IMG/VR virus record: IMGVR_UViG_3300031133_000383
Span: 346,635 to 410,634 of that record
From: a virus
Lineage: Duplodnaviria; Heunggongvirae; Uroviricota; Caudoviricetes
Direction: 5' to 3' (one strand)
DNA length: 64,000 nt
Part shown: positions 28,977 through 42,603 of the stretch, piece by piece
How positions within the stretch are numbered: position 1 is the first letter of the stretch
Layout: the number at the start of each line of letters is the position of its first letter
Notes under the pieces: model-generated
Told to the model about the DNA's origin: nothing
The model's database searches: none
Seen by the model: the letters and a program-made list of their open reading frames with translations, nothing else
Made by a program: the position numbers and the translations under genes

Positions 28977-29065
28977 ATTTTGTTTAGGCTTGTAGCTCAG
29001 ATGGTAGAGCGGAGGGCAGAAACCCTCGCGTCGGAGATTCGATTTCTTCCTCGCCTAGACAAAAT
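28977..29065 (+). ncRNA. tRNA-like RNA with 6-nt anticodon loop (CAGAAA), extended acceptor stem, no CCA
   Basis: TAGCTCAGATGGTAGAGC D-arm, GAGGG/CCCTC stem, TTCGATT T-loop, TTTTGTTTAGGC/GCCTAGACAAAA closing stem. Confidence 0.7.
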
Positions 29066-29220
29066 TTTTTATTTTTAATCAATCAAAGATGACAGCTATT
29101 TGAACTCTGGATTGGTGTAATGATTTTTTTCAACAACCTTGAGCTTGATGTTTTCAAAAAAGAAATCATGGTTAAAAATCTTGACTTCTTTAGCATCTGA
29201 TGCTAATATAACCACACAAA

Positions 29221-29304
29221 GCCCGAGTGGTGAAATGGTAGACGCGGGGGACTTAAAATCCCCTTCCTTACGGAGTGCCGGTTCGAGTCCGGCCTCGGGC
29301 ACCA
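29221..29304 (+). tRNA. tRNA-Leu(TAA)
   Basis: Cloverleaf, loop CT-TAA-AA, long variable arm, CCA. Confidence 0.95.
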
Positions 29305-29312
29305 AATTTTAT

Positions 29313-29386
29313 TTCTCGTTAGTTTAACGGTAGAACAGCGGCCTCTAAAACCGTGTATGCGGGTTCGAATCCCGCACGAGGAACCA
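29313..29386 (+). tRNA. Amber tRNA (anticodon CTA)
   Basis: TTCTCGT/ACGAGGA acceptor, loop CT-CTA-AA (CTA at 29345-29347), GCGGG-TTCGAAT-CCCGC, ACCA. Confidence 0.85.
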
Positions 29387-29393
29387 GTATCAT

Positions 29394-29470
29394 GGGACTT
29401 TAGCTCAGTTGGTTAGAGCGTCCGACTCATAATCGGCAGGTCGTAGGTTCAAGTCCTACAAGTCCCACCA
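29394..29470 (+). tRNA. tRNA-CAT (probably Ile2, lysidine type)
   Basis: Cloverleaf, CT-CAT-AA, Ile-like D-arm, CCA. Confidence 0.9.
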
Positions 29471-29547
29471 AATTATCAAAAATTGTCTATATATTGTATA
29501 TTTCCTTTAATCAGGACAATTTGTTGCTACATCCTCTGAGGTGCCAA

Positions 29548-29898
29548 ATGAATTCAATTGATGTGAATAAAATAACCCCATCTTGGTATGTCAAAGATAA
29601 TATTCTTTTTTTAGATATTCATTATTGGAAACGTAACGAAACAACAGAAGGCCACTGTGGAAGCACTCTAATTTGGAGGAAGACTATCATAAATGGCAAT
29701 CTGATCGCCGCTTATAATTCCATAGTAAAATCAGCTAAAAAATATTTTGATTTACCCTACCTTAAAAAAATCAAGGTGGATAAGTCACCTGCAGTAACGC
29801 CTATTGATGAAAATCATGACTTTGATTTCTATCATCCTCTAGTAGTTTTTTTTATCGGGGTGCTTGTCGGTATGATTTTTATTAAAATGTTGAATTAA
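29548..29898 (+). CDS. Hypothetical protein with C-terminal TM
   Basis: GAGGT RBS before MNSIDV. Confidence 0.7.
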   Translation: MNSIDVNKITPSWYVKDNILFLDIHYWKRNETTEGHCGSTLIWRKTIINGNLIAAYNSIVKSAKKYFDLPYLKKIKVDKSPAVTPIDENHDFDFYHPLVVFFIGVLVGMIFIKMLN

Positions 29899-29932
29899 CT
29901 TTTTAATTTCGATACAGTATGGATATCTATTA

Positions 29933-31135
29933 ATGACAAACCGCCTTGAACTACTGTTAGCGAATACGCCTATTGAATCTGTTTTTGATCATTCAGATTT
30001 TAGTGTTGTTACAGAAGCTGCTAATGTAGGCGAAGTCAGTTTCAATCATTTTGATTTTTTAACTGATAAATCGTATACCGCTACTACCTTTTTCACTGGT
30101 CTTGTTCAATCTCTTTCTTTTATCTTTCCAAATTTTACGATTTCCGAAATTAAAAGTTTAAGTTCTACGGCTTACTTTTACTTTGACATTTTCCCATTTC
30201 CTCAGATTATGAATGATATGCATGCTTCTAATTTCAAAGTGCATGTACTTAATCGAAAAGATACAGTTCGTGTAAATTTCAACCTCTTTACTCTTTCGTT
30301 TCGTTTTAAAAAATGGATTTTTAGTTTTAGTGATACGTTCAAAAAAGAACAGGAAATGGAATCCATTTCTTTTGTTAATATTCATACTGCTATGCTGAGA
30401 TCTTTTAAAGAATTGATTTCAGATGTCATGATTAAGCCACCTCTATTATTTAATAATGCAATCTTCAAGAAAATTATTGAAAATAAATCTAACTTTTCCT
30501 TTAACTCCATGCGTTATGAAGATGTTTTTACACACGAAACTGATGTCAATTTTTCTAGGCATATTAAAAAAATTCAACCGTTGATGATTGTAGGCGATCT
30601 TCGCTCTATCAAGGGTGTTGCTCAACCAGCTATGTTGTATGTAAAAGGTGATATTCGCGTAACTCGTAATGTTTTGAATGTTGCTAAATCAAGTGAAACA
30701 CAAGTATATTTTCGTTATGAATCCCTTGATTTTATAGACTCGCTATTTTCAGTGACTTTTTCTTCTGAGCAACTATCTTCTTTACGAAAGATACTTAATT
30801 TGATTAACAAGATTAATATTTGTTTTGAAAAAGAAGCGTATTCAGGTATTGAAGTCATTCGTATTAACAATTCCAAAAAAGCTATTTATAATTTGATTAA
30901 AGAAAAAAATGCATTTCATATTACATTTGGTAGAACTAGTATTCATATCAATCGTTATATTGAATGCTCTATAATTATTAATAATTCATACCAATCTATC
31001 AAAGTTGAAAGTTTTGAAGAAGCTTTTAATTGTATTTATCAGGCATTCGCTGTACACGTTGCTAATTATTTTAATATTGATCAAAGCCTAGTGAATGATG
31101 ACTATATCAACTTATTGGAAATGGTTCGTCATTGA
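29933..31135 (+). CDS. Hypothetical protein with C-terminal INLLEMVRH motif
   Basis: 400-aa ORF. Confidence 0.8.
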   Translation: MTNRLELLLANTPIESVFDHSDFSVVTEAANVGEVSFNHFDFLTDKSYTATTFFTGLVQSLSFIFPNFTISEIKSLSSTAYFYFDIFPFPQIMNDMHASNFKVHVLNRKDTVRVNFNLFTLSFRFKKWIFSFSDTFKKEQEMESISFVNIHTAMLRSFKELISDVMIKPPLLFNNAIFKKIIENKSNFSFNSMRYEDVFTHETDVNFSRHIKKIQPLMIVGDLRSIKGVAQPAMLYVKGDIRVTRNVLNVAKSSETQVYFRYESLDFIDSLFSVTFSSEQLSSLRKILNLINKINICFEKEAYSGIEVIRINNSKKAIYNLIKEKNAFHITFGRTSIHINRYIECSIIINNSYQSIKVESFEEAFNCIYQAFAVHVANYFNIDQSLVNDDYINLLEMVRH

Positions 31136-31193
31136 CTTTTTTTTATAATTTTATATACTTCTTTTATTTTTATAATATTATTTCGGAGAATAT

Positions 31194-31901
31194 ATGATTA
31201 AAATTATGGAGTATATTGGCCCAGTCTTTACTGTAAATAATCCTCGATATAAACTAGTGCCTATTGAAGAAACAATACAATCTGCCTGTGTCAATGATGA
31301 CTGTATCAATTATCATCAGCCTCTTTTTGATGGTGTCTTTTGTCCTTTTTGTGGGATGAAAGGAGAGTCTTTTTCTTATACAGTTGATCGTTATTTAACA
31401 CAAGAACTTGTTCCCGAAGATGAACAATGTAATCTCTATCTCAAAGCAATAGAACTAGAATCCAGAACGCTTCGTTTTATTCCAAAATTCAAGTCTTATC
31501 AATATAGCCCAAGTTTTTCGTTAATTCATTTTGTTTCAAAAAAATGTTCAAATTATACTTGCCAAGACAACAACCACGAATATCATGATGATTATGATTT
31601 TTGTTATCAGTGTGGATCTAAACTTTCAAATAATATTGATTCTCAACAAAATACTATATTTATTGATGATATTTTAAAAGAACAGAAAAATCAAATATCC
31701 TTAATTTTATGTGATTCAATAGAACATTATGTTCTGCATAATTTGGATGAATTGATTTCAACACCGTTATTTGATCAGTTTATTATTGATTTCATGAACA
31801 GAAAAGAATACAAATCAATTATTAAAGAACTTGAATATATTTATGGTACAGGTACAGTTGTTGTTGAAAATAGACATATAACTTATCGACCAGATATTTA
31901 A
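31194..31901 (+). CDS. Double zinc-ribbon protein
   Basis: C-x4-C...CPFCG and C-x4-C...CYQCG. Confidence 0.75.
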   Translation: MIKIMEYIGPVFTVNNPRYKLVPIEETIQSACVNDDCINYHQPLFDGVFCPFCGMKGESFSYTVDRYLTQELVPEDEQCNLYLKAIELESRTLRFIPKFKSYQYSPSFSLIHFVSKKCSNYTCQDNNHEYHDDYDFCYQCGSKLSNNIDSQQNTIFIDDILKEQKNQISLILCDSIEHYVLHNLDELISTPLFDQFIIDFMNRKEYKSIIKELEYIYGTGTVVVENRHITYRPDI

Positions 31902-41501: not shown

Positions 41502-41717
41502 TTTGCAAAAAAAATTAAGAAAGAGTTGCAGTCTATCGTTTTTTGTTGTAGAATAGCCTCATTGAAAAGAAGACATCTGCAAGCGGCTTGAACCGTTGGA
41601 AGAAAGAGGAAAGGCTAACCATCCTACTTGCATGTTTATGATATAATTTTCAAAATTCTAAAAAAACGTTTGACATCTGAAATGAGTTTTGATATAGTTA
41701 TCTCATTGAAACAAATA

Positions 41718-41929
41718 AGGGATTGAGTGTTTAAGGCTCAATGTTAATTCAGTGTGGTCGGGGCGTGAATTAAGTGCTAGTGGCACATGGTTAATTGAAG
41801 CTTGATAAAATCAAGCTTATGTAGAAATGGCGAAAGCCAGTTCAGTAGCGAGTCCTTTAAAGCCCGTTTTGGTTTTCAAGGAAAGTGGGTCACTCAGGCA
41901 ATCCCATCTTACTCGTCAGTCCTGATTTA
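41718..41929 (+). ncRNA. Structured RNA family C, copy 2
   Basis: Homologous to 38526-38740; between promoter and tRNA-Asn. Confidence 0.8.
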
Positions 41930-41931
41930 AT

Positions 41932-42007
41932 TGGTAAATAGCTCAGTCGGTAGAGCAGGTGACTGTTAATCACCGGGTCGTAGGTTCGAGTCCTACTTTA
42001 CCAGCCA
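41932..42007 (+). tRNA. tRNA-Asn(GTT)
   Basis: TGGTAAA/TTTACCA, CT-GTT-AA, G73, CCA. Confidence 0.95.
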
Positions 42008-42034
42008 TATTTTATAGATACAAGAGATTAGATA

Positions 42035-42247
42035 ATGAGCAGATCGGTCAGAGGTTCTAAGGGTAGTGGTTACGACTACTGGGGCAAACGTGCAAAGAGT
42101 TGTTGTTCACCCGGTCGTGTCAATAAGAAGTTGACGTTGGGTATTGAAAGAATGCGTGAACATCAACTGGTATCGTATGAACTTGATCTTGTTGCTGATG
42201 TTCATAACCACTTTGAACACGAAGTTCAAGTACTTAAAGTTTTGTAA
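42035..42247 (+). CDS. Small basic protein inside tRNA operon (MSRSVRGSKGSGYDYW)
   Basis: ORF between tRNA-Asn and tRNA-Met. Confidence 0.7.
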   Translation: MSRSVRGSKGSGYDYWGKRAKSCCSPGRVNKKLTLGIERMREHQLVSYELDLVADVHNHFEHEVQVLKVL

Positions 42248-42262
42248 TTTAAAATGTTTTGA

Positions 42263-42339
42263 AGCGGGGTAGAGAAGCCCGGTAACTCACCAGTCTCATA
42301 AGCTGGAGATCGCAGGTTCAAATCCTGCCCCCGCAACCA
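42263..42339 (+). tRNA. tRNA-Met(CAT), initiator-like acceptor
   Basis: AGCGGGG/CCCCGCA with 1:72 mismatch, CT-CAT-AA, ACCA. Confidence 0.9.
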
Positions 42340-42438
42340 CTTCGGACACCTAGCGTGTCCACCTGTGAAGAACAACACAGAGGCGATTTAGCCTGAATCA
42401 AACGACTGTGAGTAAACACAGTTTTTAAAAATCATTAT

Positions 42439-42514
42439 GCCGTCTTAGCTCAGTTGGTAGAGCAACTGACTTGTAATCAGTAGGTCGTGAGTTCGAGTCC
42501 CACAGACGGCACCA
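42439..42514 (+). tRNA. tRNA-Thr(TGT)
   Basis: GCCGTCT/AGACGGC, CT-TGT-AA, CCA. Confidence 0.95.
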
Positions 42515-42527
42515 GATTTGTAGTTTT

Positions 42528-42603
42528 GTCCTTTGTAGCTCAGATGGTAGAGCGGGCGTTAGAAGACGCCGCGTCATAGGTTCGATTCCTATCGGGGACA
42601 CCA
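42528..42603 (+). ncRNA. tRNA-like RNA with 6-nt anticodon loop (TAGAAG), bulged acceptor stem, encoded CCA
   Basis: GTCCTTTG/CGGGGAC, GGCGT-TAGAAG-ACGCC, ATAGG-TTCGATT-CCTAT, ACCA. Confidence 0.75.

Follow-up and report, generated by a model that had tools for sequence, protein, structure and literature searches.

The tRNA-like domain of tmRNA, like mascRNA, keeps only part of a tRNA and makes use of the elbow and acceptor shape without decoding. Similarly, the elbow and acceptor shape of the tRNA-like domain of Y RNA engages tRNA-binding proteins or processing enzymes (PMC4201824). The pseudo-tRNA of Bacillus cereus called tRNAOther is tRNA-shaped and retained, does not serve translation, exerts a cellular effect and adjoins mobile DNA (PMC3399842). 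Bacteria and phages also carry allo-tRNAs and other irregular tRNAs of 8/4, 9/3 or bulged geometry, with diverse anticodons in one structural family; some of them take no active part in translation, or are charged and then left unused, and a role as regulatory RNA has been suggested (Mukai et al., PMC5389517). Phage tRNAs evade anticodon nucleases by anticodon-loop substitutions (PMC10264068), and T5 tRNA-Lys is opposed to PARIS (PMC11464382), as is phage tRNA-Tyr to retron effectors (PMC11555353). Here two tRNA-like genes, referred to as copy A and copy B, are described in a stretch of 64,000 nucleotides (nt), the window, which comprises bases 346635-410634 of a 437,043-bp IMG/VR virus record (31% GC, estimated 98% complete). 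With somewhat better than even confidence, copy B and its orthologs are taken for a conserved family of Phe-tRNA-derived, non-decoding, tRNA-shaped RNAs that a clade of giant, AT-rich virus-like elements carries and whose most likely role is that of a decoy or sponge; copy A would be a derived paralog.

No sequence kinship links tRNAOther, which is chromosomal and bacterial, with the genes described here, whereas the copy B family has features of its own: a conserved body, an apparently neutrally drifting loop of 6-7 nt without U33, a bulged acceptor and a location in a giant virus-like element. The allo-tRNAs also depart from regular 7/5 geometry, some of them by a bulged base, but have a Sec/Ser-like long variable arm and a normal 7-nt anticodon loop, in contrast to the 5-nt variable loop and Phe-type body of the copy B family, in which the 8/4 register pairs fewer stem cells (95%, with an invariant U-C mismatch) than 7/5 with a bulge (100%). 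Nuclease-evading and replacement phage tRNAs resemble copies A and B in their occurrence in virus tRNA arrays, in anticodon loops departing from those of the host and in their relation to tRNA conflict. However, because they substitute for cleaved host tRNAs, they remain able to decode and keep U33 and a fixed anticodon in a loop of 7 nt; the RNAs of copies A and B have none of these features. In the Y RNA, tmRNA and mascRNA modules the anticodon arm is missing or truncated, while the copy B family forms a full cloverleaf with a 5-bp anticodon stem. Among the features of a canonical decoding tRNA, the four-stem cloverleaf is present; a 7-nt loop with U33 and purine 37, a conserved anticodon and a regular acceptor with free NCCA are absent. 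U33 is nearly invariant among tRNAs and is required for proper formation of the anticodon loop (PMC11122139). A literature search on phrases for natural 6-nt anticodon loops gave nothing relevant; a paper on the AcrIIIA1 protein and RNA concerns host tRNA fragments and was set aside.

Structure of the two genes

Copy B closes an operon in which a promoter is followed by a structured RNA, tRNA-Asn, tRNA-Met, tRNA-Thr and finally copy B itself. The features are as follows (window coordinates).

42528-42603, + strand: copy B, with an 8/7 acceptor stem (7 bp and a bulged U near 42534), A73 and encoded CCA (sequence, ARAGORN, Rfam, family model, orthologs)
42560-42565, + strand: copy B anticodon loop TAGAAG (RNA UAGAAG), 6 nt, without U33, closed by the stem GGCGT (42555-42559) / ACGCC (42566-42570)
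42609-42633, + strand: intrinsic terminator, hairpin AAACCATGC-TTCG-GCATGGTTT and T run, directly 3' of copy B, kept after every ortholog of it
41670-41698, + strand: promoter-like site of the copy B operon, TTGACA-17-TATAGT, TG extended (consensus match only)
41932-42514, + strand: genuine tRNA-Asn(GTT), tRNA-Met(CAT) and tRNA-Thr(TGT) of the same operon, 5' of copy B (ARAGORN; the order Asn-Met-Thr-X is syntenic in relatives)
28977-29065, + strand: copy A, full unit, a cloverleaf inside a 13-bp outer helix (ATTTTGTTTAGGC / GCCTAGACAAAAT), no CCA (sequence, fold, family model)
28986-29057, + strand: copy A cloverleaf core, acceptor AGGCTTG/CTCGCCT, discriminator A (Rfam RF00005, 40.4 bits)
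29017-29022, + strand: copy A anticodon loop CAGAAA, 6 nt, without U33, closed by the stem GAGGG (29012-29016) / CCCTC (29023-29027)
29066-29076, + strand: T-rich tract TTTTTATTTTT directly 3' of the copy A outer helix, probable transcript end as read from the sequence

Both tRNA-like stretches are real, and each statement on their sequence in the preliminary description holds. Exactly two occurrences of the 23-mer TTGTAGCTCAGATGGTAGAGCGG are found within the window, and no more in the entire 437-kb record; shuffled sequences contain none. The first 23 nt, including a D-loop variant restricted to this lineage, are common to both copies, as are the variable loop GCGTC and the T-loop TTCGATT; the anticodon, T and acceptor stems differ. 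The anticodon stems are different in sequence and each forms five perfect pairs, with A instead of U at the second loop position. The Rfam tRNA model (RF00005) scores copy A at 40.4 and copy B at 31.4 bits, which is above threshold and the two lowest values in the window. ARAGORN gives no call for copy A and labels copy B "tRNA-??? (agaa)".

It was also correctly noticed that both acceptor stems are distorted, and that only copy B has CCA while copy A is extended into a long outer stem. In copy B an 8-nt 5' strand faces a 7-nt 3' strand, after which come A73-CCA and a strong terminator hairpin. In the acceptor of copy A, pairs 5:68 and 6:67 form a 2x2 mismatch, and the cloverleaf fold of this copy depends on the flanking extension (-33.1 kcal/mol, z -3.5); in the fold of a trimmed 73-nt version the acceptor stem is lost.

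Orthologs of copy B and rates of change

Orthologs were sought through the 366-aa protein encoded just 3' of copy B, whose homologs range from 92% to 42% identity, by examination of the homolog contigs and of one related IMG/VR record. Six syntenic orthologs were found (seven genes in all), each placed after Asn-Met-Thr or after a conserved open reading frame (ORF) of about 55 aa, and each with the same terminator after it. Their anticodon loops are listed below.

Window copy B: UAGAAG, 6 nt
L244/L245 (one relative, two assemblies): UGGAAG, 6 nt
L249 (identical with L175): CAGAAA, 6 nt
L255: CAGAAC, 6 nt
L252: UAGGACA, 7 nt
L258: UAAGACA, 7 nt
L250: GACCAAA, 7 nt

Mean column identity of the RNA is 92% across the orthologs, while the neighbouring protein falls to 42%. 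In the bulged-U register all 126 of 126 stem cells pair, compared with 37-52% in shifted registers, and two-sided changes are seen at three stem pairs (for example C4-G69 to A4-U69). The 8/4 register pairs 95.2% of cells and leaves an invariant U-C mismatch, against 100% for 7/5 with a bulge; the columns that decide between the two never vary. All members have the 5-nt variable loop GCGTC. Variation is concentrated in the anticodon loop, where 6/7 columns vary, as opposed to 13/70 in the body (Fisher p = 0.0007). The genuine tRNAs of the same loci served as a control: tRNA-Asn has 17 variable body positions and tRNA-Thr 2, and in both the anticodon loop is unchanged (0/7).

The three closest pairs of orthologs, with third-codon-position and flanking divergence of ~13%, 11-20% and 2-3%, differ by one loop substitution each and by a single body change in total. 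According to our arithmetic for these pairs, 3 loop changes stand against ~1.9 expected and 1 body change against ~20 expected. In these comparisons the loop behaves as a sequence evolving at about the neutral rate and the body as a strongly constrained one. What selection preserves, as the alignment indicates, is the L-shaped body of copy B: the bulged-U acceptor, D arm, paired anticodon stem, 5-nt variable loop, T arm and A73-CCA. The loop had been described earlier as a conserved YAGAAR motif, and this has to be given up for the seven-gene family, in which it varies both in sequence and in length (6 or 7 nt).

The same data bear on the view that both copies are functionless, i.e. decaying pseudo-tRNAs or assembly errors. 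It is true that 6-nt loops arise trivially and that Phe genes lacking one A of an A-run are common in draft genomes; besides, mismatches occur in copy A, for which neither CCA nor diverged orthologs are seen, and copy B is missing from some relatives. For copy B, however, decay is refuted by the excess of constraint in the body, by the complete pairing and compensatory changes of the stems and by CCA kept across deep divergence. The short loops are not sequencing errors because independent assemblies reproduce them: contig L176 is identical to copy A, and L244/L245, L249 and L255 supply B orthologs with 6-nt loops. Even in copy A the anticodon and T stems are perfect and 6 additional outer base pairs have been gained. 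Loss of function for the two copies is thus regarded as very improbable. The proposal that selection rather than decay maintains the two genes therefore stands for copy B, whereas for copy A no diverged orthologs were found on which it could be judged. The most distant orthologs do have 7-nt loops, as might be expected of homologs if the short loop was an error or the mark of a simple pseudogene, yet these loops are abnormal, with A33 in all three and C37 in two.

U33 is present in 0/7 genes of the family. This, together with the drift of the loop and of the "anticodon" across orthologs, makes it very probable, as the preliminary description supposed, that the copy B family does not decode; for copy A the same is very probable. 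The opposite view is that of a real decoder with an unusual loop, for instance a doublet or -1 frameshifting reader or a nuclease-resistant Phe tRNA. In its favour, ARAGORN finds no canonical tRNA-Phe(GAA) in the 437-kb record and GAA is present in the loop; ARAGORN can also read copy B with an 8-nt loop and an AGAA anticodon. But the "anticodon" is GGA in one and AGA in the other of two near-identical relatives, and GAA, GGA, AGA or CCA across the family, with the identity elements unchanged, and neither the missing U33 nor the C37 of two orthologs suits a decoder. In library selections Anderson, Magliery and Schultz (2002) reportedly obtained no functional decoders with 6-nt loops. Decoding in an unusual mode is hardly credible in our opinion.

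Several observations concern the neighbourhood of the orthologs. The ~55-aa ORF (motif ...DSITVK.QKIIHQTEL...) lies at L249:3249-3416, L250:4573-4743, L252:75-245 and L246:94-267, and is absent from the genome of the window. For the 366-aa protein, Foldseek against PDB gave a best E of 0.29 (TM ~0.1; model pLDDT 70.6, moderate) and a sequence profile search of PDB E >= 0.28. The 16-nt terminator core CCATGCTTCGGCATGG at window 42612-42627 recurs near 44214, where the two sites flank the 110-aa and 366-aa ORFs, and is present twice in L258 as well; it is a reused element.

Origin from tRNA-Phe

A derivation from tRNA-Phe was at first mentioned only as possible, and it is now supported by two lines of evidence. 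Viral contigs were scanned with the D stem, variable loop and T loop fixed (frame GGTAGAGCG..GCGTC..TTCGATT) and the anticodon arm left free at 15-18 nt, which returned 114 viral tRNAs, all with a 17-nt arm and most with the anticodon GAA. Outside the anticodon, tRNA-Phe identity of the E. coli and bacterial type depends on A73, U20 and U59 (PMC9976931), and all three are invariant among the copy B orthologs; G1-C72 and CCA are conserved too. Because the frame matches viral Phe(GAA) tRNAs and these three bases are kept, the body of copies A and B is, on the sequence evidence, of tRNA-Phe type.

The retained bases raise the question of a chargeable but non-ribosomal aminoacyl carrier. The charging enzyme would be PheRS in lineages with GAA, or else one that does not depend on the anticodon; the loop and distorted acceptor stem would keep the charged RNA off the ribosome, and a tRNA-dependent transferase would draw on it. 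Conservation of A73, CCA, G1-C72, U20 and U59 is in line with it, and precedents exist in irregular tRNAs that are charged but unused in translation and in tRNAOther (PMC5389517, PMC3399842). Nevertheless GAA (G34-A35-A36), the major PheRS determinant (PMC9976931), is found in copies A and B and three orthologs, inside the 6-nt loop, and is lost in the other three, which have GGA, AGA or CCA. Marks of anticodon-independent identity (G3-U70, long variable arm or G-1) are lacking, neither a tRNA-dependent transferase nor an aminoacyl-tRNA synthetase was found nearby, and copy A does not have a free 3' end. A carrier role is held to be quite improbable.

The same Phe features are shared by another explanation, in which the YAGAAR 6-nt loop itself is selected and the RNAs are decoys for enzymes that recognise the anticodon loop of tRNA-Phe (an anticodon nuclease, PheRS or a loop-modifying enzyme). 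It was close to the role first proposed. The four closer genes of the B family and copy A all have a 6-nt Y-R-GAA-N loop, and a single deletion does not turn YUGAARA into YAGAAR; the Phe identity elements A73, U20 and U59 are retained (PMC9976931), the element encodes a tRNA-repair ligase of Rnl1 type, and similar loops occur in tRNA arrays of unrelated metagenomic contigs. On the other side, the three most distant orthologs have 7 nt and read GGA, AGA or CCA, loop substitution is about neutral, with G, A or C as the last loop base, and of the unrelated metagenomic matches, found with a pattern that itself imposed YAGAAR, only one (L165) scores as family. A decoy for readers of one particular anticodon loop fits poorly with a loop that drifts in this manner, and it is judged distinctly unlikely. 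Two related ideas on the loop were examined and dropped. A sixth base pair closing an AGAA tetraloop is unsupported (in the wider set the loop begins and ends with C-G, U-G or C-A, but in L255 with C and C), and as regards a partner RNA that would pair with the loop, complements of it occur about as often as chance predicts and none lies in a conserved context.

Possible function of the copy B family

Since selection ignores the loop and keeps the tRNA shape and CCA, decoding is almost certainly excluded, and mimicry of a single anticodon loop is unlikely. In the interpretation preferred here, the copy B RNA would be the last part of a tRNA operon transcript, or would follow a small ORF, and would be excised by the tRNA-processing machinery, which would leave a CCA end. 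Being unable to present an anticodon to the ribosome, it would act by having its tRNA body or 3' end recognised, and it would most likely serve as a decoy or sponge for a tRNA-binding protein indifferent to the anticodon, for example a defence effector of the host that is directed at tRNA, or an enzyme that handles tRNAs. This role is preferred because the element appears equipped for tRNA conflict, as it encodes two RNA ligases that look like tRNA-repair-type equipment, one of them of the T4 Rnl1 tRNA-repair type.

First listed of the pair 16359-17564 / 8791-9885: RNA ligase, T4 Rnl1-type, PF09511 (E 1.5e-29)
Second of the same pair: RNA ligase PF09414 with PHA02142 OB domain

The main rival is that of an RNA-processing or transcript-end module, where the tRNA shape is an RNase P or 3'-end signal, or a 3' stabiliser, which defines the ends of an upstream RNA and has no function of its own. 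The upstream RNA would be tRNA-Thr or the mRNA of the small ORF; in the case of copy A, two structured RNAs at 28600-28944 would take this place. This explanation predicts indifference to the anticodon loop, and the position of the genes agrees with it: both copies are last before a terminator or T-run, and in four relatives only a few bases separate the gene from the stop codon of the ~55-aa ORF. RNase P requires only the acceptor/T minihelix and the elbow, however, whereas in these genes compensatory changes on both sides maintain the anticodon stem as well, and the sequences of the T stem, variable loop and acceptor hardly vary, which is more than being just paired. Moreover, L246 has the small ORF and an ordinary terminator without the tRNA-like gene. 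A pure processing module is therefore considered unlikely.

The decoy or sponge can be put in a narrower form, which is doubtful. The copy B family would then be a virus-encoded RNA anti-defence factor, a full tRNA body with CCA but deliberately made unfit for decoding, and would sequester or block an immune effector of the host that reads the body or 3' end (such as toxins that modify CCA or cleave the acceptor stem), and copy A would be a sealed-end derivative for a different binder.

Several points weigh against the preferred interpretation. No partner protein was found, and a stoichiometric decoy has to be abundant or to bind tightly. The estimate of the neutral rate comes from three close pairs only. 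Some relatives (L246, L253/L257) lack copy B, which is therefore dispensable in them. Diverged orthologs of copy A were not found, the only counterpart being the 99.7% identical strain L176. Finally, relatives of the window lie on contigs of 1.28-1.86 Mb and one related record (G001, 290 kb) is classed as a provirus, so that "anti-host-defence" is an assumption about lifestyle.

Gene finders miss such genes or mislabel them: the 7-nt orthologs are called "Ser" or "Trp" by ARAGORN, which also gives "???". For this reason they would pass for additional decoding capacity or be set aside as pseudogenes. It can be said that a frozen body with a free anticodon loop is a signature that separates a functional tRNA-shaped RNA from both a working tRNA and a dead one, and the same comparison of body and loop may be used for other odd tRNAs of large phage genomes. 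If the decoy or sponge is true, RNA-based counter-defence would be added to a picture in which phage tRNAs only replace cleaved host tRNAs.

Copy A and the wider family

A covariance model built from the B orthologs scores copy B at 104.4 bits and copy A at 67.6 bits, and ordinary tRNAs of the record at no more than 57. By this model a single B ortholog, and nothing resembling copy A, is present in the related 290-kb record. Copy A is a paralog confined to its lineage, more derived than copy B and with sealed ends; the first promoter-like site after it is at 29181-29209. The 400-aa ORF adjoining copy A has no homologs and so leads to no relatives, and the upstream 461-aa protein leads to a relative (L257) that has no tRNA array in that interval. 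In the 99.7% identical strain a 1.2-kb insertion (L176:1465-2672) is seen near window position 28402, just 5' of tRNA-Leu(CAA). It is 80% similar to record bases 431621-432830 and is probably a mobile element.

Further members were sought by pattern scans. In viral contigs an exact D-arm scan found 28 loci, 0 of them with an odd loop, and scans with a fixed 16-nt arm and with the YAGAAR frame gave no matches. The final body-only scans also gave none, a null that is uninformative since the viral scan missed the known positive L258. A scan of metagenomes, whose pattern imposed YAGAAR but not stem pairing and so does not address enrichment over other hexaloops, returned 12 tRNA-like matches with perfect anticodon stems, all in tRNA arrays and including the L249 contig under the name L175. 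Among unrelated contigs only the marine L165 type is family-like (74.9 bits), and the others are indistinguishable from ordinary tRNAs. The L165 gene has the same bulged acceptor stem, no CCA and a 6-nt loop, and lies beside four normal Phe tRNAs. No protein neighbour is common to the unrelated contigs with YAGAAR tRNAs. At ~1746-3080 of L165 (identical with L168, L171 and L178), tRNA-Asp genes alternate with tRNA-Phe genes in a dense array, and the genes differ in sequence. In L166 a tRNA-like gene at ~3260-3334 has a 15-nt anticodon arm, which can be drawn with AGA as a triloop on a 6-bp stem or with UAGAA as the loop of a 5-bp stem.

When only GAA was fixed in the 16-nt arm, many bacterial 6-nt loops appeared, mostly YUGAAR, i.e. 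the Phe loop minus one A of an A-run. These genes have intact acceptor stems, A73-CCA and the usual position in a Val-Asp-Phe-Gly operon, and their short loops probably go back to homopolymer errors or are trivial variants. ARAGORN gave only three 6-nt loops for the ~1,400 tRNAs of unrelated phage loci. A 6-nt loop by itself is not meaningful; copies A and B are set apart by the loss of U33, the distorted acceptor stems and the agreement of independent assemblies. Stand-alone chromosomal tRNA-like genes with CUGAAC or CAGAAC loops were met in metagenome-assembled genomes of Steroidobacteraceae (L203, L206) and also in L184 and L187. These genes have identical bodies and score 63-65 bits with the covariance model, and CUGAAC recurs in unrelated bacteria; they are possibly another class of short-loop tRNA-like genes.

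The source element

The record contains 26 ARAGORN tRNA calls, that is 25 ordinary tRNAs and copy B. The nearest relatives of window 39-48 kb (L244/L245, with a 92% identical homolog of the 366-aa ORF) lie on contigs of 1,281,823 and 1,859,102 bp, and that homolog is seen in four assemblies with contigs >1 Mb. The 437-kb record may be a part of, or kin to, a much larger replicon. Searches of the record with three models, for terminase ATPase (PF03354), HK97 capsid (PF05065) and ribosomal protein L14 (PF00238), found none of them. In the window one further tRNA deserves mention.

29313-29386: amber-suppressor-type tRNA (anticodon CUA)

Recoding of TAG was considered and rejected, as the standard code fits, TAG terminates 49 long ORFs and a sense reading of TAG gains little. 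The largest ORF of the record has only 797 aa and most large ORFs are without a family. Cellular-type genes include those for DnaK, NAD-dependent DNA ligase, a chemotaxis receptor signalling domain, an M3 peptidase, an MFS-acyltransferase fusion and an IS605-type (TnpB-like) transposase.

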